Source: an uncultured Pseudomonadota bacterium
GTDB lineage: Bacteria > Pseudomonadota > Alphaproteobacteria > Rs-D84
Length of the DNA stretch: 64,000 bases
Direction: 5' to 3'
Assembly: GCA_902793435.1 (NCBI GenBank)
Contig: CADBDF010000003.1
Coordinates: forward strand, 26,167-90,166
Shown piece by piece: positions 5,993 through 34,693 of the stretch. The notes under the pieces were generated by a model that did not search any database, was not told where the DNA came from, and saw only the letters and a list, made by a program, of their open reading frames with translations. The position numbers were made by a program, and so were the translations under genes. Numbering within the stretch: position 1 is the stretch's first letter; the number at the start of each line of letters is the position of its first letter.

Positions 5993-7987
5993 ATGGGTGA
6001 ATTGAATTTTATTACAAAACAAACAAAAATTGTTAAACGTTCTGGCGAAACGGTCGATTTTGATGCCAACAAAATTTATAATGCGGTTTCCAAGGCCGTT
6101 GCTGCAACTGGCGAATTAAATGATGCCCAGGTTTTTACAATTACTCAATTTGTATTGAATAAATTGGATATCGCGTTTGTTGATAAAATTCCAACTGTCG
6201 AACAAATCCAAGATACAGTTGTTCAAACCCTGATGGATTCACGCGCATACAAAACAGCCGAGGCATATGTTATATATCGCCAAAAACGCAGTGAAATTCG
6301 CGATGCGTCCATTGATGCCGTTGATGTTATCGATGGTTATGTGACCGAGGCTGACTGGCGTGTCAAAGAAAACGCAAACATTGGTTATTCTATTGGTGGG
6401 TTAATTTTACGCACCAGCGAACGCGTGACCGCAGAATATTGGTTGCACCTGTACCCCCAAGAAATCGCGGCGGCACACAAACGCGCATCTATACATATTC
6501 ACGATTTAGGTTGGTTGTCTGGTTATTGCGCGGGTTGGTCTTTGCGCGAATTGTTATACGAAGGATTCAATGGGGTCCCAGGTTATTTACAATGTGGTCC
6601 TGCAAAACACATGGCGACAGCTATTTCGCACATGGTGAATTTCTTAGGCACATTACAAAATGAATTCGCAGGTGCTCAGGCGTTTTCATCTGTTGATACA
6701 TATTTGGCACCGTATGTTCGTTTAGACAAGTTGTCATACGAAGATGTTAAAAATTCTATGCAGACATTGATATTTAATTGTGCTGTGCCATGCCGTTGGG
6801 GAACACAAACACCATTTATCAACTTTACATTTGATTGGACATGCCCAACAGATTTGCGCCCACAACGTCCATTTGTCGGTGGCAAACAGGTTGATTTCAC
6901 ATATGGTGATTTGCAGGAAGAAATGGATATGATTAACAAAGCGTTTTTGGAAGTCATGACCGAAGGTGATGCAATGGGTCGTCCATTTACATTCCCTATT
7001 CCAACATACAATATCACACCTGATTTTCCATGGAATCACCCAAATGTAAAACCTTTGTTTGATTTGGCGGCGAAATACGGTATTCCAAACTTTCAAAACT
7101 TCTTGAATTCCGATTTGAACCCAACAGATGTTCGCTCTATGTGTTGCCGGTTGCGTTTGGACGTTCGTGAATTGTTAAAACGTGGTGGCGGTTTATTTGG
7201 TTCGGCGGAAAAAACTGGTTCTATTGGTGTGGTCACAATTAACTTGGCACGTTTGGGTTATTTACACAAAGGCGACCGCGAAGGTTTGTTCCGCGAATTA
7301 CAATCTTTGTTATTCATGGGGCGCGATGCATTGGAAATCAAACGCAAAATTATTTCCAAGAATATGGAACGCGGTTTGTATCCATTTACCAAACGTTATT
7401 TGGGTAATTGGAATCATCACTTTTCTACAATCGGTGTAAATGGCGCAAATGAAATGGTTGCAAACTTTACAAACGGTGCGGAAAATATCGCAACAGTGTT
7501 TGGTAAAAAACTGGTCTTGGACGTTATGGATTTCATCCGTGAAAACTTGGCAAACTTCCAAGAAGAAACTGGCAACCTGTATAATTTAGAGGCTACTCCA
7601 GCCGAGGGATGTTCATATCGTTTCGCAAAAACAGATAAAAAGAACTATCCGGATATTATTACCGCTGGGACCCCAGATGCCCCATACTATACAAATTCAA
7701 CCCAGTTGCCTGTGAATTATACAGACGATCCGTTTGTGGCATTGGAACACCAAGAAGAATTACAACGCAAATATACAGGCGGAACAATGTTGCATCTGTA
7801 TATGGGCGAACCTGTATCAAATGGCGAAGCGGCACAGAAAATCGTACGGACTATATTTGAAAATTATAAAGTGCCATATATGACATTGACACCAACATTT
7901 TCAATATGTCCAAAGCATGGTTATTTGCCTGGACGTCATGAGTTTTGTCCAAAATGCGATGCGGAACGCGGCGCAAACGACAAATAA
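5993..7987 (+). CDS. nrdD: anaerobic ribonucleoside-triphosphate reductase (class III), large part lacking the glycyl-radical domain
   Basis: N-terminal ATP-cone (IVKRSGETVDFDANKIYNAV), then a NrdD core and the first Zn-ribbon Cys pair (FCPKCD) just before the stop. Start placed at ATG 5993 (AAGGAAAG 6 nt upstream), because the track start at 5876 would read through the NrdR boxes. Confidence 0.9.
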   Translation: MGELNFITKQTKIVKRSGETVDFDANKIYNAVSKAVAATGELNDAQVFTITQFVLNKLDIAFVDKIPTVEQIQDTVVQTLMDSRAYKTAEAYVIYRQKRSEIRDASIDAVDVIDGYVTEADWRVKENANIGYSIGGLILRTSERVTAEYWLHLYPQEIAAAHKRASIHIHDLGWLSGYCAGWSLRELLYEGFNGVPGYLQCGPAKHMATAISHMVNFLGTLQNEFAGAQAFSSVDTYLAPYVRLDKLSYEDVKNSMQTLIFNCAVPCRWGTQTPFINFTFDWTCPTDLRPQRPFVGGKQVDFTYGDLQEEMDMINKAFLEVMTEGDAMGRPFTFPIPTYNITPDFPWNHPNVKPLFDLAAKYGIPNFQNFLNSDLNPTDVRSMCCRLRLDVRELLKRGGGLFGSAEKTGSIGVVTINLARLGYLHKGDREGLFRELQSLLFMGRDALEIKRKIISKNMERGLYPFTKRYLGNWNHHFSTIGVNGANEMVANFTNGAENIATVFGKKLVLDVMDFIRENLANFQEETGNLYNLEATPAEGCSYRFAKTDKKNYPDIITAGTPDAPYYTNSTQLPVNYTDDPFVALEHQEELQRKYTGGTMLHLYMGEPVSNGEAAQKIVRTIFENYKVPYMTLTPTFSICPKHGYLPGRHEFCPKCDAERGANDK

Positions 7988-8037
7988 AAACAATCAAAAT
8001 TAACAAAAAAAACACAACCAAAGGAAGGAGGAAAATT

Positions 8038-8229
8038 ATGACTAACACAAACTGCAACTGCGACAGAACAAAATGCGAAGTATTTTCACGTTCTATGGGC
8101 TTTATTCGTCCTGTATCGAACTTTAACATTGGAAAATATAGCGAATTTTGCGAACGCAAGACTTTTACAGAAGCAAACAGTTTGACGGCTGGTCAAAGAC
8201 ACTCTGACCTGATGAAAAGAGCGGCTTAA
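8038..8229 (+). CDS. stand-alone NrdD C-terminal glycyl-radical domain (63 aa)
   Basis: MTNTNCNCDRTKCEVFSRSMGFIRPVSNFNIGKYSEFCERK matches the NrdD C-terminus (second Cys pair plus the SRxxG(Y/F)xRPVxxxNxGKxxEF radical loop). Different frame from nrdD. GGAGG at 8027-8031 lies 6 nt before the ATG. Confidence 0.75.
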   Translation: MTNTNCNCDRTKCEVFSRSMGFIRPVSNFNIGKYSEFCERKTFTEANSLTAGQRHSDLMKRAA

Positions 8230-8233
8230 TATT

Positions 8234-8935
8234 ATGCGCGAAATTCAAATTGGGGGATTGGTTTCTTTTACCACTATCGATTATCCTGACAAATTGGCTG
8301 CTGTGCTGTTTTTGGTTGGGTGCCCGTTAAGATGTGCGTATTGTTCCAATCCTCATTTAATTGATGTTGGCGATGGTCCATACGACCCTGAAAAGATGTT
8401 TGATTGGATTAAATCACGTGTCGGTCGTTTAGAGGCCATCGTTTTTTCTGGTGGCGAGGCATTAATGCAAGGTGATGCCACAATTGGTTATATGCAACGT
8501 GTGCGTGATTTAGGGTTCGCGATTGGATTGCATACAAACGGTTTTTATCCAGATTTGTTAAAACGCGCCGAACCATTGGTCGATTGGATTGGATTGGATT
8601 ACAAGGCCACACGCGAAAAGTATGAATCTTTGGTGGGAAAAGGTATTGCATACGACCAAATGATAAAATCTTTGGATTTTTGGATTGGAACCGGCAAAGA
8701 TTTAGAGGTTCGCGTGACGTGTGACCCACGTTTTATAACACTGGACGATTTGCGTAAAATTATTGACGATTGTGCGGTGCGTGGTGTAAAAAAAATCGCG
8801 ATACAAAAATATCAACCACATTTCGAAGATGCAGAACACGCAACCACCCCAGAAGCACGCGACCAGTTTTTCAAAGATGACGATTTACGCAATTATATAA
8901 ATTCAAAATTTGAATCTGTAATTTGGCGGGAATAA
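8234..8935 (+). CDS. nrdG: anaerobic ribonucleotide reductase activating protein (radical SAM)
   Basis: 233 aa with the CxxxCxxC cluster motif (GCPLRCAYCSNPH) and a GGE motif (FSGGEALMQ). Directly follows nrdD. Confidence 0.85.
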   Translation: MREIQIGGLVSFTTIDYPDKLAAVLFLVGCPLRCAYCSNPHLIDVGDGPYDPEKMFDWIKSRVGRLEAIVFSGGEALMQGDATIGYMQRVRDLGFAIGLHTNGFYPDLLKRAEPLVDWIGLDYKATREKYESLVGKGIAYDQMIKSLDFWIGTGKDLEVRVTCDPRFITLDDLRKIIDDCAVRGVKKIAIQKYQPHFEDAEHATTPEARDQFFKDDDLRNYINSKFESVIWRE

Positions 8936-8938
8936 TAT

Positions 8939-9397
8939 ATGCAAAAAGAAATTAAATTTTGTACACCATCTGGACCTTATTGGTTTTTATCACCGCTGGC
9001 TTTGTTCCCCATCAAAATGCATGTAGATGGCCAGGATTTTGTTTTTCCATCGGTAGAGCATTATTACCAAGCGATGAAATTTTACGCATCTGACCCGCGT
9101 TTTAATACTATTTTACAACTAAAAAACCCTGATGATGCGCGGTTATTGACCAAGACACCAGAATACAAGGTTAATCGTCGGGAAAATTTTGATAATGATA
9201 AATTCGATATTATGGAACGCGGATTGCGTGCAAAGTTTGCACAAAATCCCGACGCCGCAGAATTATTAAAATCCACAGGCGATGCGATTTTAATAAAATC
9301 TTGTCCGGTATGCTATAAATGCGGATTTGGAATCGGCAGTGGCACAAACCGTATTGGGAAAATATTGATGGATATACGCCAAAATTTGCAAAAATAA
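8939..9397 (+). CDS. NADAR (YbiA-like, DUF1768) domain protein
   Basis: 152 aa with FLSPLALFPI, FPSVEHYYQAMKF and RAKFAQNPDAAELLKSTGDAIL, typical of the NADAR family. Starts 4 nt after nrdG. Confidence 0.7.
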   Translation: MQKEIKFCTPSGPYWFLSPLALFPIKMHVDGQDFVFPSVEHYYQAMKFYASDPRFNTILQLKNPDDARLLTKTPEYKVNRRENFDNDKFDIMERGLRAKFAQNPDAAELLKSTGDAILIKSCPVCYKCGFGIGSGTNRIGKILMDIRQNLQK

Positions 9398-9580
9398 TTA
9401 TTTTTTGCGTTCTTTTTCGGCGGCAGCCAATTCCGCCAATAATTGTTCACGTGCAGAAATATTTTTAATTTTATGAAACTGGTTATTATCTGTATCGACT
9501 TTGACTTTGCGTTTTCTCTTTGGACCGCTGACTTTGATAACTCGGCCACTTTGTTTAATGGTTGTTGTGTATCTGCGCAT
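9398..9580 (-). CDS. small basic hypothetical protein
   Basis: 60-aa ORF rich in K/R, without a convincing Shine-Dalgarno. Coding status uncertain. Confidence 0.25.
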   Translation of the reverse strand: MRRYTTTIKQSGRVIKVSGPKRKRKVKVDTDNNQFHKIKNISAREQLLAELAAAEKERKK

Positions 9581-9694
9581 AACAAATACTTTTCAATTTT
9601 TTATATTATCAAACAAATAGATAAAGTCAATATTCGGCAAAAATACTTGACACAAGGAATTTTTTTATATAAAATTTGTCGGCAATAGAGTTTT

Positions 9695-9769
9695 GGCCCC
9701 ATCGTCTAATGGTTAGGACACCGCCCTTTCAAGGCGAGAATCCCGGTTCGAATCCGAGTGGGGCTGCCA
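9695..9769 (+). tRNA. tRNA-Glu (anticodon UUC)
   Basis: GGCCCCATCGTCTAATGGTTAGGACACCGCCCTTTCAAGGCGAGAATCCCGGTTCGAATCCGAGTGGGGCTGCCA is close to E. coli tRNA-Glu. Anticodon loop is CTTTCAA and CCA is encoded. I count a G1-U72 wobble and two stem mismatches (27-43, 50-64). Confidence 0.85.
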
Positions 9770-9779
9770 AAATAAACAA

Positions 9780-9803
9780 ATCGGGTTTTATGCCCGATTT
9801 TTC
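9780..9803 (+). terminator. rho-independent terminator after tRNA-Glu
   Basis: atcggg / cccgat stem followed by a T-run. Confidence 0.7.
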
Positions 9804-9877
9804 TTTGTTTTCCAATACTTTCAGCAGTTCGTAAGTCGGGCATCAAAAAACATACCCGTTTCACACATTTACGAACT
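9803..9877 (+). repeat. A repeat copy 1 (conserved leader plus nested hairpin)
   Basis: ctttgttttccaatactttca, then outer stem agttcgtaagt (9826-9836) / atttacgaact (9867-9877). Inner stem is cggg/cccg, with a 3' bulge tttcacac. Confidence 0.8.
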
Positions 9878-9987
9878 TTTAAAAAGAAAAGGTTAGAAAT
9901 CTAACCTTTTTTTGTATATATTGTTTTTTGCTTGAATTTTTCTGGTTTTTATTTCAATATTTTGTTTGTTGAAAAAGGGGATATTTA

Positions 9988-10698
9988 ATGAAAATCATAG
10001 ATAATATCAATGTGTTTGGTGATTCTTTGTCAAAAGGAATTGTTTTAGATGATGACTCTAAAAAATATAAAATATCAGATAACAATGCCGTAGATGTGTT
10101 TAGTCGTAATATGCCTGTTTCTGTAAAAAATTATTCCAGATTTGGTTGTACAACAGATAAAGCTGTAAAAATAGCAGATGGTGTATTTAATAACGGATTA
10201 GAAAACGATTTGTTTTTGGTTGAATTTGGTGGAAACGATTGCGATTTTAATTGGGATATTGTTGCAGAAAATCCGACCAACAAAGATATTAAACCAAGTG
10301 TTTCATTAGAACAGTTTAAGGTAAATACTCAAACTATCATTGATAAATTACGCAAATTAGGAAAACGTATTGCTATAATGTCTTTGCCACCAATTGATGC
10401 AAATAAATATTTTAAATGGATTTCCAAGGGTGATAAGCAACGTGCCGCAAATATTTTGCAATTCTTGGGGGATGTGAATTTTATATACAGACATCAAGAA
10501 TTGTATGCAGTTGCATTTAAACAAATTGCCATAGATAACAATATTCCTGTGGTGCCTGTTCGTGAAACCTTATTAGGCATTCATAAATTAAGTGATTACA
10601 TTTGTGAAGATGGAATACATCTAAATGAACAAGGGCAAGCGGTTGTAGAGAGTGTTTTTGAAAATACATATTTACAATATCACCCTGAAACAAAGTAA
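9988..10698 (+). CDS. SGNH/GDSL-family hydrolase
   Basis: 236 aa with block I (NVFGDSLSKG), block III (EFGGNDC) and block V (CEDGIHLN). Confidence 0.7.
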   Translation: MKIIDNINVFGDSLSKGIVLDDDSKKYKISDNNAVDVFSRNMPVSVKNYSRFGCTTDKAVKIADGVFNNGLENDLFLVEFGGNDCDFNWDIVAENPTNKDIKPSVSLEQFKVNTQTIIDKLRKLGKRIAIMSLPPIDANKYFKWISKGDKQRAANILQFLGDVNFIYRHQELYAVAFKQIAIDNNIPVVPVRETLLGIHKLSDYICEDGIHLNEQGQAVVESVFENTYLQYHPETK

Positions 10699-15811: not shown

Positions 15812-15901
15812 GGATGGTTGGCAGAGCGGTCGAATGCGACGGTCTTGAAAACCGCTGACGGGGTAACTCGTCCGGGGGTTCGAATCCCTCACCATCCGCC
15901 A
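15812..15901 (+). tRNA. tRNA-Ser (anticodon UGA)
   Basis: 90 nt. Acceptor GGATGGT/ACCATCC, anticodon loop CTTGAAA, long variable arm (TGACGGGGTAACTCGTCC), T-loop TTCGAAT, encoded CCA. Closely parallels E. coli serT. Confidence 0.95.
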
Positions 15902-16183
15902 GTATTCTGGCATGTATGCCGATACAGATGAAACGCCCGCGGTTCTGCGGGATTTTTCATACATTGACTTCGGTATGGGCGAAAATTGCCCTTTTTTACG
16001 CCATAATATCCTGCTTCCTATACACCCCCCATTTTCCGATAGTCAATACCTTGAAAAATAGCCAGAAAACCCTATATAAACACCGTAATAAAATTATAAA
16101 ACACAGGAGAAAAAATCGCTTTTTTTCATTGAAAACACAAGGTTTTTGTATTACATTTTTCATGAAAATTTATGAGGACAATT

Positions 16184-25082: not shown

Positions 25083-26552
25083 TTATTTGTTCGTATAGGT
25101 AAATATTACATCCAACAATCGAACCATTGCCAAGGTATCTTGCCCGCAATATTCACGCAGATTTTTCATCATTTCTTCTGTTTCCTGTGGCGTTTGATTT
25201 CTGTTCATAAAATCTAAAAATTGGCTGCTGGCTTCTGTTCCGTTATGAATCCCCAGGGTTTCATAGGACAATTCCGGAACAAACGTGGGCAATGTTTTTT
25301 TGATTGATACACTACCGTTTTGACAAGGACAATACAGACCACGATTTTTAAATGGTTCTTCTAAATCTAAAATGCGTTCATTTATTGATGATAGTTTTTT
25401 GGCAAACTCTGGAAAATCAAAAGCCATTTCACAGTTACGGCCTTTTTCAAATGTTTTGTGATAGACGACTACTGAACCCGTATCACCGATTACATCACAT
25501 AACTTTTTCAATAGTCCTGGTCTAGGGTCTGTTTCTGGGTTGTCGTGTAAATATTCATAATGTTCCAATTTGCCGCCAGGCGTCCTTTGCACATGTAATG
25601 AAAATTGAAAACAAATTTGTTGATAGGCGTGCGAATTATCAAATATCGGCACCGCCGACATAATTGTTTCATAATCAAGAAAGTATAAAGGCCATTGCAA
25701 ATTATTCGTAAATTGTTTCAAGATGTTTAGATTGATTACATCTATATTATCTAAAAACGCTTCTATATCCCCGGAATGCTGTTGTTTATAGTAAATATCG
25801 ACAGGAACATTATGCAAATCAGCACCATATTTTGCATAAATTTCGTCTGCCAATTTTCCTTTGAATGCATCAAAAACTGAATACTGTGGCAAATCTTTCC
25901 AACAATGACATTTATATTCGCATTTATAGAATTTATTGTTACATTTCGTCTTAGAAATAGCGATGCCAAGTTCTGGACCAGACAGAAATGCGCGTATACG
26001 ATTTATTTCCGATTGCACCGTTTCCATATCTTGCATTTTACCGGCTACATCGTGCAAAGCGAACAACTGTGCCAAATCTAAATCACCATGGCGAATATAT
26101 TCTTTATTTAGTGTCATTACAAAGCAATTACGAACCTTGATTCCACAGTGGTTTAATACATACCTCTGAAAAGAAACATCTAAATAGTGATATTCATGTG
26201 GTTCTGGATTCGATTTTACCTCTATAATATCCCATGTTCCGTCATTGTTGTTTTGTAAAATATCAACAGCACAATATTCATCAGTATCGGTGCAAAATGT
26301 CGCTTCATAGATGTATGACGCATTTTGTGTGATGGCTTTTTGGGTTTGTTCTATGGCTTCTGGTTCCCAAGGCTTTGCAGTGATGCGAACGCCTCCAGGG
26401 AATCTGTCACATGCTAATTCACCAACAGCAGTTCCAGCATCCAATATTGCTTGATTTTTGTCGGATTCTATATCTTTACGATATTTTTTGAACCACAACG
26501 CATTCGGGCATTTAATTCCAGTTACATAATCAGACTTTGATATTTTTATCAT
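25083..26552 (-). CDS. DUF2779-family protein (Cas4/PD-(D/E)xK-like N-terminal nuclease plus C-terminal domain)
   Basis: 489 aa. The N-terminus MIKISKSDYVTGIKCPNALWFKKY is the characteristic DUF2779 start. DIIEVKS fits a PD-(D/E)xK core. Cys cluster CNNKFYKCEYKCHC. Confidence 0.6.
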   Translation of the reverse strand: MIKISKSDYVTGIKCPNALWFKKYRKDIESDKNQAILDAGTAVGELACDRFPGGVRITAKPWEPEAIEQTQKAITQNASYIYEATFCTDTDEYCAVDILQNNNDGTWDIIEVKSNPEPHEYHYLDVSFQRYVLNHCGIKVRNCFVMTLNKEYIRHGDLDLAQLFALHDVAGKMQDMETVQSEINRIRAFLSGPELGIAISKTKCNNKFYKCEYKCHCWKDLPQYSVFDAFKGKLADEIYAKYGADLHNVPVDIYYKQQHSGDIEAFLDNIDVINLNILKQFTNNLQWPLYFLDYETIMSAVPIFDNSHAYQQICFQFSLHVQRTPGGKLEHYEYLHDNPETDPRPGLLKKLCDVIGDTGSVVVYHKTFEKGRNCEMAFDFPEFAKKLSSINERILDLEEPFKNRGLYCPCQNGSVSIKKTLPTFVPELSYETLGIHNGTEASSQFLDFMNRNQTPQETEEMMKNLREYCGQDTLAMVRLLDVIFTYTNK

Positions 26553-26563
26553 AATGATTCCGT

Positions 26564-27250
26564 TTATTTTATCTCCAGTTTAATACCTGTTATTCCTTTT
26601 TCACGCCAATTTCCTAAATACCCGGTGTGCAAATTACCGCTTAAACTGGAAGTTGGTTTAAAATTGTTAACTTGCCATACATGTTGGGTTGCTGATTTAT
26701 TCGTATAAAACAAAGTAACAAAAACCGTGCATATGGAGGTGTCGCGCAGATGTTTTTCAAATTCTTTACCAGAACATTCGCGACCGTGTAAAAAGTATTT
26801 TTTGTCTAGAGCTGTTGATTCATGAACATTTTTTATACTGGCCGTTTTTGTTGTGTGTGTTCGTTTTTTTGCATTTTTGATGCTTTCTGCCTTGTATACA
26901 AAAAAACTTTCATCTATTTTGCCATCATCGTATTTTCTGTGGCATTCTTCACATAAAAAATGAAAATTTGCAAGATCCTTTGAAAAATTTACAAAAGATT
27001 CTTCGAATCTATCTAAATCGACATGACAAATATCTCCTTCTTTTGAATATGTTGATTCTTCAAAAAAGTTTCTTACTAAATCCTTTCTTTCAAAGCCATG
27101 TTTGTGTGCGGATTGAATTTCTTTTTCTTTTGTACCACAACATGCACAAATACCAGATTTATATTTTTGTGTTAAATCTCGTGTTTTATTACGTGCATAT
27201 CCATCAAAAAATTTTTTAAACGTTTTATAATCACCTACGAACATATTCAT
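26564..27250 (-). CDS. HNH-motif endonuclease-like protein with an unknown C-terminal domain
   Basis: 228 aa with ICACCGTKEKEIQSAHKHG and FHFLCEECHRKYD (CxxC...H...CxxCH). Confidence 0.55.
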   Translation of the reverse strand: MNMFVGDYKTFKKFFDGYARNKTRDLTQKYKSGICACCGTKEKEIQSAHKHGFERKDLVRNFFEESTYSKEGDICHVDLDRFEESFVNFSKDLANFHFLCEECHRKYDDGKIDESFFVYKAESIKNAKKRTHTTKTASIKNVHESTALDKKYFLHGRECSGKEFEKHLRDTSICTVFVTLFYTNKSATQHVWQVNNFKPTSSLSGNLHTGYLGNWREKGITGIKLEIK

Positions 27251-27273
27251 TATGCATCCTTTTATTTAAAAAA

Positions 27274-27444
27274 CTAATTTCCTATTTGTCCTGTTTCATT
27301 ATCATACAATACTATGCGGCCGAAACTTGCGCAATTTGTTTCTTCTAATTTACGCAATTGCTCTTTGGCTGCGTCATACGAAAAATAAATTTCAGGTAAA
27401 ACACAGTTGTTAAATATAATTTTCCATGCTGTACAAGTTGCCAT
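27274..27444 (-). CDS. 56-aa hypothetical protein (below the ORF-track cutoff)
   Basis: My translation is MATCTAWKIIFNNCVLPEIYFSYDAAKEQLRKLEETNCASFGRIVLYDNETGQIGN. AAGGGGA lies 6 nt before the ATG. About 23 nt gaps to both neighbours. Confidence 0.45.
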   Translation of the reverse strand: MATCTAWKIIFNNCVLPEIYFSYDAAKEQLRKLEETNCASFGRIVLYDNETGQIGN

Positions 27445-27467: not shown

Positions 27468-28915
27468 TTAAAAACCTATTTTTGTTTGTTTTTTATGTAA
27501 ATCTTTGACCTGTTGTTCCTGACGTAATCTGGATAACAGTTCAGATTTATCTGTAATTCCTAGTAAATCTGCTTGTTTTTTTACAACAGCAAAATCACCA
27601 GGTGCTAAATTCGTTAAATCAGCAATTTCTTCCTTGGAAATTTGTTGATTAAAAAAATCTTGAAAAGCCATAATGACTTGGTCAGGTTTTAAGAATTCGT
27701 ATTTAACCTTGAACGAAAACCTGCGAAGCGCGGCTTTATCTATATTGTCCATCAAATTAGTCGTGCAAACAAACGGATAGTCCGCATTTTCCATCTGAGC
27801 CAACATTTCGTTTACAGAACAGACTTCCCAAGAACGCGCTGCTCGGGTTCTGTCCATAAGGAAACTGTCTGCTTCATCGAAAACCAGCATTACTTTTTTT
27901 GCACGTGCTTCCGCAAACGCACGGGCAATATTCTTTTCTGTTTGACCTACATACATACCGTTTATATCGCTGGCACGTTTTTTTATTATGTTTATGCCCA
28001 ACAAATCAGCCAGATGTTCACAAAATGCGGTTTTCCCTGTTCCTGGTTTGCCGTATAACAAAATGTTTATACCAGTTTTTTTGAGTTAATACCACCCGTT
28101 AAAATATCTGATATCTTGTCAAAATCATCGACCATATAATCAAAATTGTCGCGTTTTAAATTCGCGGATAAAGAGGCACCAATCAAGACATCGCGAACGT
28201 CCTTGCACTTGTCAAAATTCATGGTTAGTAAATTCAAAAACATTGAACTGAATGAATTATCACCATAGCGATGTTTTTATATCCCCGATTCTGCCAATAC
28301 GCCAGTTTGAGACATGATTTCTTTGACTTTTTCCGACGGTATTTTACATATTGCAGATACAAAATCTGCATTTATATCGTCCATAAAATCATTACTGATT
28401 CCATCATTGAAACAACAAAGTAATCTGCGTAATTGAGAATTTTTTTTAATAAACACCAAAAATTGCAATAAAATTCGACTATCGTTCGGCAAATCAAAAG
28501 TATCACAAATTATGGTAAAATTTTTATCAAAATCTGGATTGGTAATATCGGTGTCAAAATCTGATTTGCGGACATCAAAAATATTAGACACACGTTCATA
28601 CAAAGCATCTTCGGCTAGTAAACTGTTCCGACATAATTTGCCATTTAGTAAATTTATAAGGAATTCAGCCTTTTCGTTTGCAGAAACACGTTTTTCACCA
28701 CTATTAATCAGGTCACGCAAATTAAACCCAAACAAATCGGTCGAATGCCTTGACAGATGATGAAAGAACATATCTGTATCATCTGGTTCGTATTCGCTAC
28801 TCGTTACATTTTTCAAATAATGCATCGCCAGTTGTCTGTCTTTTATATTCATATTTACGCCTTTTTTCGGGGTTCGTGGGTAATATAAATACCATGCTGG
28901 ACAAAAACGGTCCAT
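27468..28915 (-). pseudogene. AAA+ ATPase gene interrupted by one nonsense codon and one frameshift
   Basis: The 28277-28915 ORF ends at TAA (28277-28279), but the same frame stays open for 69 more codons. At the A7 run (28076-28082) adding one A joins ...TGGINSKK to TGINILLYGKPGTGKT (Walker A), with VMLVFDEAD (Walker B) and the rest of an AAA+ core following. Confidence 0.7.
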
Positions 28916-28926
28916 TTTTTCCTTGC

Positions 28927-28946
28927 GTATAGAAAAATTTTGATAC
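28927..28946. promoter_or_regulatory. imperfect palindrome between the AAA+ operon and the WYL remnant (candidate operator)
   Basis: gtatagaaaaattttgatac (GTAT-N12-ATAC). A related site, gtataaaaaaattttttgatag, lies at 31080-31101 upstream of the intact WYL gene. Confidence 0.45.
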
Positions 28947-28989
28947 TGTTATAATAAATCAATATAAAAAGCCTAAATCGGGAGTAAAT

Positions 28990-29133
28990 ATGCCAGAATC
29001 ACGCAATAGTTATAAAAAATCAGATATTCATTTAGAACTTATCAATGAATTACGCAAAAGATATATGACACTTACAGATATTCGTGACTTTTTATTTGTT
29101 AATATTTTAAATTTGGCATTGTTTTTTTATTAA
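28990..29133 (+). pseudogene. truncated N-terminal remnant of a WYL-type regulator
   Basis: MPESRNSYKKSDIHLELINELRKRYMTLTDIRDFL aligns with MAEARDNYKKTDLKLELINELRSRSMTRNDIKTFL of the 31125 gene (about 20 of 35 identical). Similarity is lost after ~35 codons, where the convergent 29099-29833 gene begins. Confidence 0.65.
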
Positions 29134-29833
29134 GTTCAACTTTATGTGACAATAATTTATCAACTGTTGATAACATGTCCATTTTTATGACCTTTATACA
29201 ATTTTTACAAAAGTATGTTTTATACATATCGATACTTTTGGGGTCATTTGAATCTTTTGTGTTTACAACTATTGTTATTTCATAACCAGGTATTTTCAAA
29301 CAATATGCATATTTTCCAGCAAATCTACCTGGGGACATACCGGTTGCATAATTTGATGGGTGTTCTACCTCTTTTTTACAAATTATTGGCAAAAACAAGT
29401 CTGGTTGTATTTGTACTTTATCTGTTAATATATCGAATGCAATTTGTTGATATTTTTTTAAATCGACTCTTTTAGAAGAAATGCCACAACGCCATAAAAC
29501 AGACACAAAGAATTTATAAAGTTTTTCATAATCAAATTTATCGGACTGAATATTATATATATTAAATCCATCGCTTATATCTGTTGATGCATTTGGTATA
29601 ATATCGTAAAAGAATTTTTTGGCATAATTATCAAAAACACCGAGTTTGTTATCACAATCTGCACATAAAAGACATTCTTTATAACCATTTTGTGCATTAG
29701 GGTTCATATCAAATTTTGTGGTTGCATTTATCCCAACCATTCTACCTTGGTTTGTTGCATGTAAACACTTTGGTATAATGTGTGATTGTACCAATTGTTT
29801 TTCTTCGCCACAAAATTTACAAATTCCTAACAT
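29099..29833 (-). CDS. hypothetical protein with N-terminal CxxC...SHIIPK motif
   Basis: 244 aa. MLGICKFCGEEKQLVQSHIIPKCL plus a second Cys pair (CLLCADCDNKLG). No family assigned. Confidence 0.5.
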   Translation of the reverse strand: MLGICKFCGEEKQLVQSHIIPKCLHATNQGRMVGINATTKFDMNPNAQNGYKECLLCADCDNKLGVFDNYAKKFFYDIIPNASTDISDGFNIYNIQSDKFDYEKLYKFFVSVLWRCGISSKRVDLKKYQQIAFDILTDKVQIQPDLFLPIICKKEVEHPSNYATGMSPGRFAGKYAYCLKIPGYEITIVVNTKDSNDPKSIDMYKTYFCKNCIKVIKMDMLSTVDKLLSHKVELNKKTMPNLKY

Positions 29834-30245
29834 TTTGGTATCTGCCTTGCCTAAATAACATGATATTTCAAATTAAAAAAGAAAGTCAAATATAATAGTG
29901 GCAAATTCCCTGTTAATATAAAATAATTCTCTGCTTTTTGAATAGGGAATTTTGAATAAAAGTGGCGTGTTACAAGCCTTGCAGTAGCATGATTTACGGC
30001 AAAACAACATATTTTTCATAAAAATTCCCTGTAAATACCCTGTAAATTGGATATCTAACACCGTCAAATATTACAACACCGCCATAAAAATTAAATGCCC
30101 GCTTGGGCATTTTATTTTTATCGTGATTGGCATTGGGTTGGACACTGCAACAAAGTTGCCGGTTGGGTTCGACAACAAGTAGATTTCACAAATGTTAATG
30201 CTGTGAAATCGTTACGGTTGCAACGCGGGCACAAAGAGCCAAGAT

Positions 30246-30265
30246 AATCCCTCACCATCCGCCAG
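30246..30265 (+). repeat. right-hand direct repeat of the tRNA-Ser 3' end
   Basis: aatccctcaccatccgccag is identical to 15883-15902. Confidence 0.9.
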
Positions 30266-30352
30266 ATTAAAATTTAAAAAAATTGCCAAGGGTGTTTTTT
30301 TATTTTATTTTTCTTTCTGTTTTATTATCATATACCGGGCAAAGGAGATTTT

Positions 30353-30958
30353 ATGGAATATCTTGATATTTATGACGAATATATGAATAAAATCGGCACC
30401 GAGACCCGAGACATAGTTCATCAAAATGGTTTATGGCACAAGACTGTTCATTGTTGGATGTATGACGATGATGGAAATGTATATTTTCAAATTCGTGCAG
30501 ATTCTGGTAAGCTATATACTACCGCATCTGGGCATGTATTGGCGGGGGAAACAGTGCGAGATGCTTTCCGTCGCGAAATATTCGAAGAAATCGGTATTAA
30601 CACCGATGCATCAAATGCTGTCGCATTAGATATCGTATTTTGGCGTCAAGATAAACCACAAAAAAACTGGCACGATCGTGCATTTGCGCATATTTATGCA
30701 AATAAACTGCCGATTGACTTTACAGATTTTCATTTTCAGCCCGATGAAGTTGCTGGATTGGTTCGTATAAACGCAAAAGATTGTCTTGATTTGTTAATGG
30801 ATAAACATACTTCTGTCCGTGCAATAAAAATTACAGCCGATAAATCAACAGATATCGATATTACAAAAAACGATTTTCTGGCTGCGTCTAATGAAACACC
30901 TATTGTAAAATATGGTTTTGTATTGCAAAGCATCATCCAACAAAATTCGCATATTTAG
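30353..30958 (+). CDS. NUDIX hydrolase
   Basis: 201 aa with the Nudix box GHVLAGETVRDAFRREIFEEIGI. Confidence 0.85.
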   Translation: MEYLDIYDEYMNKIGTETRDIVHQNGLWHKTVHCWMYDDDGNVYFQIRADSGKLYTTASGHVLAGETVRDAFRREIFEEIGINTDASNAVALDIVFWRQDKPQKNWHDRAFAHIYANKLPIDFTDFHFQPDEVAGLVRINAKDCLDLLMDKHTSVRAIKITADKSTDIDITKNDFLAASNETPIVKYGFVLQSIIQQNSHI

Positions 30959-31079
30959 GTATGGAAATTTGTGCAACAGAATTATAGTCCGCCAGAAAAA
31001 TCAAATGTCCTTTTGGGGCATTTTTTTGTTTTATTATTTTTGAATTTATTTGGACAAAATTGGTCCAGATACAACTTGT

Positions 31080-31101
31080 GTATAAAAAAATTTTTTGATA
31101 G
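31080..31101. promoter_or_regulatory. AT-rich near-palindrome upstream of the WYL gene (candidate operator)
   Basis: gtataaaaaaattttttgatag, related to 28927-28946. Confidence 0.4.
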
Positions 31102-31124
31102 CATATCTTTTAAAAGAGGCAATT

Positions 31125-32186
31125 ATGGCAGAGGCACGCGATAACTATAAAAAAACAGATTTAAAACTGGAACTTATTAACGAATTACGTTCCAGAAGTA
31201 TGACACGTAATGATATTAAAACATTCTTGTCAAACCAACGCAAGATGTTAGGCAAAGTTCCTGTGACATGTATGAATCCTGAAAAATACAAAGTTAGCGA
31301 TAAAACCGTAAAACGCATAATTGATTCTATTGATGAATTGTATGGTGACCAATTAGATTTTAACCCTGAATTTAAAACATACAAATTGGATTTACACGAT
31401 TTTCCAGACACTATCAATGAAACAGAAATTCAGGCTTTGGATGTTGCTTTACAAAAAATGAAAAACAACACAAATGCACGCAAATCATTAGAAAATTTAA
31501 AAGCAAAATTATCAACCAGGTTATACCGAAAAATAAAACACACCGAACCCACCAGTGCAATCCGTAAAATATATGATGCCGAACAAAATATAAATTCGAA
31601 CTATGCAATTGTTGGTCCGCAATTAATTGTAAAATTTGACGAAAGCGTTAAAACTTTGTTAGATAATGCCATTTCTAAACGACACGAGGTTCAATTTAAA
31701 TATTACAACAAAAATGTCACTGTTCAGCCCGTAGGAATTATACACAGTTCAAACAATGTATATTTAATCGCATTTGAAAAAAACGCAAAAAAAGATATAG
31801 ACAAACCGCGACATTATAAACTGGCCGAAATTTCCAATTTAATTGATACAAAACAATGGTTCCCAGATGACCGTCATTTTTCATTACAAGAATATGCAAA
31901 TTCTATGTTTGGGGTGTATAATGATGGGAAAACATATGATATAGACTGGTTAATCACAGACCCACAAATCATTAGTGTTGCAAAACAATATATGTTTCAC
32001 CCGACACAACAATTTATCGAAAATCCAGATGGCAGTTTAACAATTAAAATGCATACCGGCGGATTGCGGGAAATCAGTTGGTTTTTGATAACATGGAACG
32101 GAAAAATTGTCCCAACCGCACCCACAGAATTAATTGATGAATATAAAAAAATATTATCCAGTTGTTGGGACAGTGTAAAAAAATAA
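31125..32186 (+). CDS. WYL-domain transcriptional regulator (HTH-WYL-WCX architecture, CapW/BrxR/PafBC-like)
   Basis: 353 aa from ATG 31125 (AAGAGG 7 nt upstream). N-terminal HTH-like segment. Central VQFKYYNKNVTVQPVGIIHSSNNVYLIAFEK...PRHYKLAEISNLI fits the WYL pattern. C-terminal DGSLTIKMHTGGLREISWFLITWNGKIVPTAPTELI fits WCX. Confidence 0.75.
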   Translation: MAEARDNYKKTDLKLELINELRSRSMTRNDIKTFLSNQRKMLGKVPVTCMNPEKYKVSDKTVKRIIDSIDELYGDQLDFNPEFKTYKLDLHDFPDTINETEIQALDVALQKMKNNTNARKSLENLKAKLSTRLYRKIKHTEPTSAIRKIYDAEQNINSNYAIVGPQLIVKFDESVKTLLDNAISKRHEVQFKYYNKNVTVQPVGIIHSSNNVYLIAFEKNAKKDIDKPRHYKLAEISNLIDTKQWFPDDRHFSLQEYANSMFGVYNDGKTYDIDWLITDPQIISVAKQYMFHPTQQFIENPDGSLTIKMHTGGLREISWFLITWNGKIVPTAPTELIDEYKKILSSCWDSVKK

Positions 32187-32532
32187 TCCGCATAAAGCGG
32201 ACTATTTTTTATCAGGATTCAATGGGAGTTGTATTCGGGGCCAAAACCTTAAAAAGCCTTTACAAAAAAGAATCCCTATAATTTGGTAGTCAAAGCATAC
32301 TTACTTTGTCCATTAATCATTATTTCATAATTCTGTATGGGATTCTGTAAGACTGTTTTCGTATATTTTTATCGTGATTGTGTTTATTTTCTTGGCAACA
32401 TCTGCATCAGTTTTAGTTTTGGCAAAATCATTTAATTTTATACGTAGCCTTTCAGTCAATATTGATACATCGCCATCAACAAACATGCGAATATTAAATT
32501 CCCCAGATTCAATTGATGGAATAATTTTTGTT

Positions 32533-33742: not shown

Positions 33743-34003
33743 TTATTTCCCTCTTGGTTTTTGTTATTACATAGCGTAATATAATACAAAATATTTGTTT
33801 TGTCAAGCATTAGTTGAATAAAAAATTTTTCAATATGCCTTTGCCGACAAAAAAAGCCAGAAACACAAACAATACCGAGCCACAGTATTAAAATTTCTTA
33901 GTTATGCAATTCGTGTGCAATAACTAAATTTTGTGTTTTATTCTTGAATTTTTGGGGTAATTGTATTATATATCACACGATATAAACAAAGGAGAAAAAA
34001 AAC

Positions 34004-34693
34004 ATGAAACAGGCTGTAAATAATATGGACCGGTATTTAAAGAAAATATTTGCATTAATGTTTGGTGCGGTTGCTTTGACCGCGGTTGCAACATATTTAA
34101 CAATATGGGGTGGCGGATTGCGCTATTTAATCAGTGATGGTGGTTTTTCGGTTTTATATTATGTGTTGCTGTTTGGTGGTTTGGCTTTTTCAATTTGGGC
34201 CCAGGTGCGTGCATTTTCGATGAAGCCTGCAACGGCGGCATTGATGCTGATGATTTATGCGGCAATTATTGGAATTACAATGACACCATTGATTGCGGTT
34301 AGTTTGGCAATTCACCCTGCGGCGATTTTATATGCGTTTATATTGGCATCTGCTATGTTTGCATGTATGGCATTGTTTGGATATAAAACCGTCAAGAATT
34401 TATCTGGATTGGGTATATTCTTGTTCATGGGAATGATTGGTTTGATTTTGGTTGGTATTGCATCAATGATTTGGCCATTGGGTTCGACATTTTCTATGAT
34501 TGTATGCTATATCGGCGTTTTGGTATTCGCGTTATTCACTGCGTATGATATGCAAAATTTAAAGAACGCATACAACACATTGGGTAATGATGAAACACAA
34601 AAAAATCAGTTGGCTGTGTTGGGGGCTTTACATTTATACATTTCGTTTATTGCGATGTTCCAATATCTGCTGAGTTTATTTAACCGCGATTAA
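34004..34693 (+). CDS. BAX inhibitor-1/YccA-family membrane protein
   Basis: 229 aa with seven hydrophobic helices and the family-typical FTAYDMQNLK near the C-terminus. Confidence 0.8.
   Translation: MKQAVNNMDRYLKKIFALMFGAVALTAVATYLTIWGGGLRYLISDGGFSVLYYVLLFGGLAFSIWAQVRAFSMKPATAALMLMIYAAIIGITMTPLIAVSLAIHPAAILYAFILASAMFACMALFGYKTVKNLSGLGIFLFMGMIGLILVGIASMIWPLGSTFSMIVCYIGVLVFALFTAYDMQNLKNAYNTLGNDETQKNQLAVLGALHLYISFIAMFQYLLSLFNRD

Follow-up and report, generated by a model that had tools for sequence, protein, structure and literature searches.

How did a short open reading frame (ORF) that begins like a regulator and ends inside a neighboring gene arise, and what could still be regulated at the place where it lies? 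The ORF, which we call the stump, has 47 codons and belongs to the window (the whole stretch of 64,000 nucleotides of contig CADBDF010000003.1 that was analyzed), part of a metagenome-assembled alphaproteobacterial genome of 0.9 Mb and 38% G+C. An initial annotation took the stump for a truncated paralog of the WYL-domain regulator encoded at 31125 and linked both to the adjoining AAA+/HNH/DUF2779 operon. Our best explanation, to which we give a probability of about 0.7 as a whole, is that the stump is the dead leftover start of a gene of the DriD family, with a winged helix-turn-helix (wHTH), a WYL and a WCX domain, from an island-borne defence-like module. The features at the center of this explanation are as follows.

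28990-29133, forward strand: stump ORF; codons 1-32 (up to 35) are the WYL remnant, codons 36-47 the opposite strand of the cassette with the 244-amino-acid (aa) gene
31125-32186, forward strand: intact DriD-family wHTH-WYL-WCX regulator, 353 aa, with Pfam WYL (E 3e-8) and WCX
29083-29095, no strand: rearrangement junction; WYL codon R32 (CGT, 29083-29085), then GACTTTTTAT
29086-30265, reverse strand: cassette with the 244-aa gene and its upstream region, extending to the right repeat of the island

The stump of a WYL gene

The stump encodes MPESRNSYKKSDIHLELINELRKRYMTLTDIRDFLFVNILNLALFFY. Its residues 1-35 agree with the N-terminus of the intact WYL protein at 22 of 35 positions, which is 63% and not the 57% or so first given for this segment. 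In a search of the genome itself the match has an E value of 8e-7, and its ungapped BLOSUM62 score was reached by none of 100,000 shuffles, which confirms the truncated paralog. The DNA is about 75% identical overall between 28898-29082 and 31051-31217 (77% for 28898-28941 against 31051-31094 and 74% for 28986-29082 against 31121-31217), and the noncoding homology reaches about 90 nt upstream of the stump's ATG and takes in a 17-bp palindromic box that is described below. Downstream, the similarity stops at 29085-29097, as annotated, where the convergent 244-aa gene (stop codon at 29099-29101) begins.

A match of only 35 residues could be generic helix-turn-helix (HTH) likeness or chance, with unrelated flanks on either side, an outcome that the initial annotation had itself raised. 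We give this practically no weight. The homology continues into the noncoding flank, no shuffle reached the score, and the stump resembles all members of one family (63-69% identical), from each of which it is about equally distant (61-76% nucleotide and 54-69% aa identity). The adjoining operon is also orthologous to operons that have an intact WYL gene at that place.

The stump has the marks of a gene remnant: its homology is partial in length, the intact ancestral state is found in relatives, and the remainder is missing, with no fragment of the 3' part elsewhere in the genome at E<=10. Judged by the helix positions in the model of the intact paralog, what is left comprises the first helix of the wHTH and part of the second, and the recognition helix is absent. 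Without a recognition helix, a WYL domain and a dimerisation domain, the product cannot regulate anything, and by itself the stump is ordinary gene decay.

A join within a microhomology

The rearrangement that had been proposed to have destroyed this WYL gene can be located at the junction with the terminator of the 244-aa cassette. In two other genomes, G102 and G123 (G and L numbers are our handles for genomes and loci), the cassette ends with the terminator hairpin GTCCCaggaatccGGGAC, then TTTTTATTT, with no WYL sequence alongside. Only GAC TTTTTATTT, the right half of this hairpin, is retained in the window. Members of the WYL family read GAT ATT CGT AAT TTT TTA TC at codons 30-36. Comparison of these codons with the cassette end places the join within a microhomology of about 10 nt, GAYTTTTTAT, at 29086-29095, and GACTTTTTAT doubles as WYL codons D33-F34-L35 and as the right half and T-run of the terminator hairpin. 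The WYL gene was thus cut after codon 32-35 by an illegitimate join.

The gene in the cassette (29099-29833, reverse strand, convergent with the stump) encodes a CxxC...SHIIPK protein for which no family match was found, NCBIfam included. The protein is 94-95% identical in G123 and G102, where it lies in other contexts, and the cassette is separately mobile. A simple deletion behind the WYL gene was rejected as the cause of the truncation, since the 244-aa gene has these other contexts and is absent from 15 of 15 WYL loci.

The promoter of the stump is the next feature to be considered.

28923-28972, forward strand: stump promoter region, with -35 TTGCGT (28923-28928), an AT-rich spacer, a spacing of 15 nt, a degenerate -10 TACTGT, and TGTTATAAT further on

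The stump might have kept a function, either as a 47-aa peptide or through a promoter that drives antisense transcription into the 244-aa gene past the halved hairpin. It has retained a GGGAG resembling a ribosome-binding site 7 nt before its ATG, TGTTATAAT lies upstream, and the terminator hairpin of the cassette is reduced to its right half. We consider such a function improbable: the promoter is degenerate (15 nt instead of 17, and TACTGT for a -10), the peptide is without any functional domain, and the stump is without a parallel in 120 genomes of the genus.

Some further observations concern the surroundings of the cassette. A direct repeat of 15-16 nt, (A)TTTTTATCGTGATTG, is found at 30112-30128, after the cassette hairpin, and at 32367-32383, after the intact WYL gene; at the second copy the sister species carries about 800 nt of extra DNA (L017 7259-8055). 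In G102 (L043 7653-9491) the 244-aa cassette is followed by CCGCCAG, a copy of the window's sequence behind tRNA-Ser (15895-16048) and a NUDIX gene. As these parts of the window are adjacent in G102, the window's island looks inserted between them.

The intact module in relatives

All genomes compared are metagenome-assembled genomes (MAGs). Among those of the same genus a module recurs in which an AAA+ gene (690-726 aa), followed by one or more effector genes, is read away from a palindrome, and a WYL gene (350-360 aa) is read away from it on the other side, its ATG about 79 nt from the start of the palindrome. The effectors vary and include DUF2779 with or without an HNH-like gene, an FtsK/HerA-type ATPase, DUF6994, ankyrin and others. 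The intact divergent AAA+/box/WYL form is present at 12 of 15 loci of the genome collection, and 9 of the 17 other same-genus (Candidatus Enterousia-like) genomes that carry the AAA+ gene have the divergent WYL gene intact. One of them, G010, holds the very operon of the window beside its intact WYL gene (DUF2779 74% and HNH-like protein 54% identical); among the relatives in general, orthologues of the window operon reach 70-74% for DUF2779 and up to 86% for the second AAA+ domain. This supports the earlier proposal that the AAA+/HNH/DUF2779 operon once had its own divergent WYL regulator, and the comparison with intact divergent pairs that had been suggested has thus been made, with nine genomes in its favor.

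The operon beside the stump has itself decayed, as its features indicate.

27468-28852, reverse strand: AAA+ ATPase pseudogene, with an in-frame TAA at 28277-28279, a frameshift near 28065-28082 and the first AAA domain deleted
25083-27444, reverse strand: downstream module genes with open frames, orthologues in the same order in G010
27274-27444, reverse strand: 56-aa ORF, open frame
26564-27250, reverse strand: HNH-like gene, 228 aa, open frame
25083-26552, reverse strand: DUF2779/Cas4-like gene, 489 aa, open frame

The frameshift immediately precedes the Walker A motif. Recombination between the two Walker A coding segments removed the first AAA domain and left the hybrid motif GINILLYGKPGTGKTAFCE, with GINILLYGKPGTGKT from domain 1 continuing as AFCEHLADLLG from domain 2. 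The orthologue in G010 has 712 aa and is 66% identical in the N-terminal domain and 83-86% in the second AAA domain. As the first gene of the operon is dead, its control is now largely moot.

PADLOC did not match the module to any system and reported only AAA hits of the IetA-like or TRIP13-like kind and Cas4-like ones, and NCBIfam added nothing for the HNH-like protein. A literature search for DUF2779 together with defence found nothing. Rfam, run across the whole window, reported four tRNAs only and nothing at the locus.

An invariant box and the promoters beside it

The regulatory site that links the two loci is a palindromic box, with promoters placed around it as follows.

28898-28914, no strand: box A, TGGACAAAAACGGTCCA, a 5-7-5 palindrome TGGAC-N7-GTCCA between the dead AAA+ operon and the stump
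31051-31067, no strand: box B, TGGACAAAATTGGTCCA, before the intact WYL gene; no -10 is left on the side facing away from that gene (AAAATA)
28882-28887, reverse strand: predicted -10-like TATATT of the AAA+ promoter, exactly 10 nt from box A; no recognisable -35, the box occupying that position
31076-31104, forward strand: putative promoter of the intact WYL gene, TTGTGT - 17 nt - TAGCAT, with TG before the -10; contains the near-palindrome 31080-31101

The initial annotation had instead pointed to two AT-rich near-palindromes, at 28927-28946 and 31080-31101, as a shared site. Their coordinates stand; the shared site is the box about 25 nt upstream. The near-palindrome spans the end of a -35-like TTGCGT/TTGTGT/TTTACT, the A/T spacer, and TGn with a -10-like TAnnAT, is seen only in close relatives and has been lost in L018, L028, L029 and L031. 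In the alignment the WYL genes of the family have promoters of the form TTGnnn/TTTACT-17-TAnnAT, from which the near-palindrome would be the sigma-70-type promoter of the WYL gene itself. The two AT-rich segments are alike because the two WYL promoters are homologous.

The window holds two palindromes of the 5-7-5 type, against 0.12 expected by chance, and there are three copies of the box in the genome. In an alignment of 19 intergenic regions, TGGAC-N7-GTCCA is essentially invariant while the flanks diverge. The palindrome does not vary among 17 homologous loci, and its 7-nt gap is always A/T-rich. The complete 17-mer of box A also occurs in L021, L023, L025 and L030. On the strength of these comparisons, the 17-bp box is very probably the operator of this regulator family.

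The AAA+-linked boxes have a -10-like hexamer (TATATT, TATAAT, TACATT, CATAAT or TATTAT) exactly 10 nt on, and their promoters are without a -35-like hexamer and without TGn; the hexamer at the -35 position (CCGTTT, CCAATT, CCATTT) is unlike TTGACA. In 25 of 25 box promoters, many of them from closely related loci, the best -10 match lies at the 10-nt gap (three tie with a gap of 12), and the opposite strand has no comparable spacing peak. The same unit of box, 10 nt and -10 occurs with unrelated flanks in G010 (before the 56-aa/HNH/DUF2779 genes), in G030 (before a 60-aa gene), three times in G001 and once in G096. The 7-nt gap is asymmetric in the 25 promoters, starting with C and ending T-rich on the transcribed strand (CGTTTTT, CAATTTT, CATTTTT), as does the box of didA in Caulobacter (CGTTTCT). 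The box therefore has a direction, and where a WYL cassette is solitary the box has kept its orientation away from the WYL gene, toward a lost operon; both solitary-WYL boxes have AAAATA in place of the -10.

Two loci extend the picture of the box promoters. In G030 (L029 7067-7311) the 60-aa gene is a beta-rich ORF directly behind the WYL gene, which recalls the small DriD target DidA, and is followed at 7447-10484 by a McrB-like GTPase gene and its partner. In G001 (L049, contig 9) the three promoters, with boxes of the CGGAC-N7-GTCTG type at 1594, 2818 and 3303, follow one another between the WYL and AAA+ genes, one per gene, and form a cis regulon.

The palindrome could also be a structural or recombination signal, that is, a weak intrinsic terminator or a break or crossover point at which modules split and cassettes are exchanged. 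A scanner flags box A with TTTTTTCC as terminator-like (a 5-bp stem and a T-run). Both split products end about 10-22 nt from the box, with the WYL cassette starting at 31029 and the family homology of the orphan AAA+ module described below gone about 8 nt past its box, and the two boxes are identical 17-mers. We nevertheless regard this as very improbable. The box was rejected as a terminator, as the canonical genes diverge from it, so that no transcription enters it from either side, and a 5-bp stem with a 7-nt loop is too weak for termination. The spacer AAAATTG is found in other lineages too (the second site of L026, and L048), so that the sameness of the two boxes says little about a shared origin. 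In its half-site, the length of its gap and the A/T richness of that gap the site agrees with a DriD box, which occurs in its canonical form in the lineage with a different regulator, and the distance to the -10 is fixed.

A regulator of the DriD branch

The protein encoded at 31125 is the product of the only wHTH-WYL gene in the genome. Its AlphaFold model (pLDDT 81) has helices at 3-23, 28-41 and 59-76, the last being the recognition helix, a wing at 77-88, three helices at 99-156, then a beta-rich WYL domain and, after it, the WCX domain. This is the order of wHTH, helical bundle, WYL and WCX of the DriD family. Residues T61, V62 and R64 of the recognition helix do not vary among the members of the family.

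The initial annotation had assigned the regulator to the CapW/BrxR type, which our comparisons do not support. DriD of Caulobacter crescentus (PDB 8TP8, 7TZV, 9PFQ), an activator of an SOS-independent DNA damage response with a wHTH, a three-helix bundle, WYL and WCX, is likewise alphaproteobacterial and is the best solved relative by both sequence and fold. It matches the regulator with E 6e-18 (phmmer), or 4e-26 when the family profile is run against PDB sequences, where the next WYL match is PafC with E 0.027 and CapW and BrxR give no match at E<=1. In Foldseek the full-length match to DriD (8tp8) has E 7e-21 and TM 0.60/0.64, followed by PafBC, CapW (TM 0.34/0.40) and BrxR (TM about 0.3/0.38), the last two at 10-12% identity. 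The protein falls in the CapW/BrxR clade neither by sequence nor by fold; it adds a member to the DriD branch of the wHTH-WYL-WCX proteins, far from CapW and BrxR.

DriD contacts single-stranded DNA (ssDNA) through Y168, R176, R178, Y192, K202, R204, W206/R207, Y240 and R288 (PMC9186387). In the phmmer alignment 8 of 10 contact residues are kept or conservatively replaced (Y193, Y213, K227, R229, Y231, K232, Y265, R315); R176 and R178 of DriD fall in a loop of uncertain alignment (K196, V198).

The DriD box has the consensus ATACGAC-N7-GTCGTAT with an AT-rich gap (PMC10853764), so that both boxes are xGAC-N7-GTCx palindromes with an AT-rich gap of 7 nt. DriD-activated promoters have no -35, carry the box over the -35 position and keep a constant distance to the -10 (PMC13004042). 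In the didA oligonucleotide of the same study, the 'optimised -35' takes the place of CCGTTT inside the box. Given a spacer of 17 bp, the -10 then follows the 5-7-5 box at a distance of ten bp, the same spacing as here. DriD serves several promoters, some of them unlinked, as the regulator studied here probably does, and both have a box at their own gene.

The two systems also differ. The half-site here is GGAC and that of DriD CGAC, and there is an insertion of 18 residues between wHTH helices 2 and 3. Our box lies about 62 nt before the start of the regulator gene, beside a normal promoter, and that of DriD homologues about 17 nt before it (PMC10853764). The targets here are AAA+ modules with variable nuclease-type partners on mobile DNA, not recA, didA or bapE, and activation is established for DriD and only predicted here. 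In the G100/G139 lineage, with a WYL protein only about 32% identical, the box is the canonical ATACGAC-CAAAAAA-GTCGTAT, 10 nt from TACATT, which indicates that the box changes with the regulator lineage.

Activation or repression

The island-borne copy of the module, of a type conserved in this genus, consisted of effector genes and a two-domain AAA+ gene, read from a predicted promoter with a box, a -10 ten bp on and no -35, and of a WYL gene read the other way from a putative sigma-70-type promoter. With the box over the -35 position, ssDNA would trigger activation. We lean toward this sign of regulation, activation on ssDNA, which is favored by the strict spacing between box and -10, the missing -35 and the kinship with DriD and PafBC. 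Repression relieved by ssDNA is the less probable sign but a serious contender, favored by the defence-island context and by the unconserved patch for the C-terminal domain of the RNA polymerase alpha subunit (alpha-CTD). Either sign would explain the loss of an island-borne regulator in a genome that already held a compatible one.

CapW of CBASS and BrxR of BREX are WYL repressors. They too are wHTH-WYL-WCX proteins, their dimers recognise palindromes of about 20 bp, and they lie divergently beside defence-type operons on defence islands, as the WYL gene does here in nine relatives and in the relic at 28853-28990. CapW also has ssDNA as its ligand (PMC11662680; PMC9122601). A divergent position beside an operon and a palindrome in the shared promoter do not separate a repressor from an activator. 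CapW and BrxR are about 60 residues shorter than the 31125 protein and are without the DriD-like three-helix bundle, and the promoter geometry here is that of an activated promoter.

On this model, a CapW/BrxR-type repressor would bind the AT-rich near-palindrome, and the surviving paralog would repress the AAA+/HNH/DUF2779 operon in trans until damage or infection. The divergent pairing with defence-like operons is indeed that of CapW and BrxR (PMC11662680), an operator over the -35 position would block RNA polymerase, and it makes sense that a toxic ATPase would decay once its repressor was gone, with the unconserved alpha-CTD contacts in keeping. On balance we think it unlikely. The AT-rich segment is not kept in four loci and coincides with the spacer, TGn and -10 of a promoter; CapW and BrxR have no sequence match at the threshold used and a much weaker fold match than DriD; the first gene of the target operon is dead; and the AAA+ promoters have no -35 or extended -10 and hold strictly to the 10-bp spacing, at unrelated secondary sites too, as an activator in contact with RNA polymerase would require.

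A number of points weigh against our preferred explanation, a dead DriD-family gene from a module that was activated on ssDNA. A repressor placed over the -35 position would fit the same promoter anatomy, and the decay would be explained equally well if a repressor was lost first and a toxic ATPase was inactivated afterwards. Identity to DriD is only 23-28%. DriD touches the alpha-CTD through R121, R122, P125 and E128, and this contact is needed for activation (PMC13004042); these residues align, weakly, with H139, T140, S144 and R147 and are unconserved, although the partner surface on the alpha-CTD may have co-evolved. The 25 promoters include many closely related loci that are not independent, and it is the approximately 10 lineages with diverged flanks that carry the argument. 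A consensus promoter scanner did not call the proposed WYL promoters at its threshold. The lesions of the AAA+ gene are read from the assembly of a MAG and not from reads, and the promoters, the ligand and the sign of regulation are in-silico inferences.

A solitary regulator and an orphan module

The stump and the intact regulator gene have different surroundings, which the following features delimit.

15883-15902, forward strand: left 20-bp direct repeat, AATCCCTCACCATCCGCCAG, the 3' end of tRNA-Ser; bounds the island that holds box A and the stump
30246-30265, forward strand: right 20-bp direct repeat, with the intact WYL gene outside it
Contig 10, 28635-30683, reverse strand: AAA+ gene of the orphan module, intact (L003 8633-10684)
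Contig 10, 27564-28613, reverse strand: 349-aa gene of the orphan module, intact (L003 7565-8614)

The tRNA-Ser island encodes a large serine recombinase. The intact WYL gene stands next to lgt, solitary in a small cassette of its own. A local duplication of the WYL gene was rejected, since the island contains the stump and the intact gene belongs to a resident cassette beyond the island's borders. The sister species G067 (RUG14746) has, at that same place, a WYL gene encoding a 90% identical protein, and the homology with the window starts at 31029, 22 nt before the box.

The third copy of the box is found on contig 10 of the same genome (G000), at 30760-30776. It is identical to box B and stands about 75 nt before a gene for a 683-aa two-domain AAA+ protein, a paralog of the window's AAA+ protein (32% identical in the N-terminal domain and 65% in the second AAA domain). 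A perfect TATAAT and the box precede the operon, and its 349-aa protein contains a wHTH domain of the FtsK-gamma type. Next to this AAA+ module there is neither a WYL gene nor a remnant of one. G067 has the same AAA+/FtsK-gamma module, 95% identical, with the same 17-mer and without a WYL gene, 318 kb from its own WYL gene; the extra 1.7 kb beside the box there holds no WYL gene but 161-aa and 470-aa ORFs. The split arrangement in both species indicates that the unlinking predates the divergence of the G000 and G067 lineages.

The single wHTH-WYL gene, the invariant half-sites and the invariant T61, V62 and R64 suggest that one regulator binds all boxes. The intact regulator would then bind three: its own, that of the dead module and that of the orphan module. 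Binding at box A is likely on these grounds but of little consequence, because the ATPase is dead. The proposal that the surviving paralog acts in trans is therefore plausible as such, given also the third box and the split in the sister species; the operon for which it was made is broken. The real trans target would be the box on contig 10, and we consider trans control of the orphan module by the 31125 regulator quite probable from the sequence comparisons.

DdaA of Moraxellaceae offers a precedent. It is described as a WYL activator of both DNA-damage and anti-phage genes (PMC12392091), a single regulator whose action in trans after DNA damage reaches unlinked defence genes. It belongs to another phylum and another WYL clade, and has another motif and restriction-modification and CRISPR-Cas targets. 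The arrangement also resembles orphaned regulator/target pairs in reduced genomes, as a stump and a broken neighbor lie in a 0.9-Mb genome in which a paralog can supply the function. What sets this case apart is that relatives make it possible to reconstruct the junction, the donor cassette and the ancestral state alike.

Several side observations concern these regions. The 349-aa protein has a weak, far sub-threshold resemblance (E 3.5e-4) to the anti-phage DNA glycosylase Brig1. Adjoining the orphan module, G000 is without about 1.7 kb that is present in the sister between two copies of TGCATGGCGCC (L003 10900-11100 against L032 10150-11850), namely, the 5' part of the 161-aa ORF and the 470-aa ORF. 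A second WYL-domain match, a 250-aa protein (PF13280, 25.5 bits) with an N-terminal zinc ribbon, a membrane segment and no HTH, is encoded on contig 10 at 33901-34653, forward strand (L003 13902-14654), 3.6 kb from the orphan AAA+ module. At the right end of the island, 30130-30265 is G+C-rich and resembles the 3' part of tRNA-Ser (GGGTTCGA ... ATCCCTCACCATCCGCCAG), its T-loop interrupted by an insertion of about 75 nt; a portion of the stretch is found again next to the 244-aa cassette in G123 (L042), and the stretch has no Rfam match.

Meaning for the regulator family and its hosts

WYL regulators beside defence systems have so far mostly been described as repressors, as with CapW and BrxR, and activation of the DriD type has been linked with genes for DNA repair, DdaA being a recent exception. 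Against this background we find an operator-regulator pair of the DriD type that appears to be wired to defence-like AAA+ modules on mobile DNA. Regulation of defence operons by WYL proteins is already known from CapW and BrxR, and a trans-acting WYL activator of defence genes from DdaA (PMC12392091). What is new is that a DriD-type promoter unit is linked to a family of AAA+-plus-effector modules that is itself uncharacterised, and that a natural split has left the regulator solitary, one module orphaned and another dead.

That one genome holds all three, the module whose regulator is dead, the intact orphan and the single solitary regulator, amounts to a natural experiment, and the same split, kept in the sister species, suggests that mobile defence modules can share their regulators in trans. 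The exact position of the break illustrates how neighboring genes in a very small genome are worn down by the traffic of cassettes behind tRNA genes. The 10-bp geometry in 25 promoters predicts promoters that are silent without the regulator and induced by ssDNA.

Our broadest proposal is a tentative one: a DriD-type ssDNA sensor might activate a whole family of AAA+-plus-variable-effector modules through a portable promoter made of box, 10 bp and -10. If this is true, one resident regulator cassette could switch on any incoming module, as box and recognition helix are invariant across the genus. Mobile modules would then be free to shed their regulator, the window being an example, or to move about with none, the case on contig 10 and in the sister species. 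These gut and rumen Alphaproteobacteria, with genomes of 0.9 Mb, would then share a genus-wide defence regulon built of exchangeable parts.

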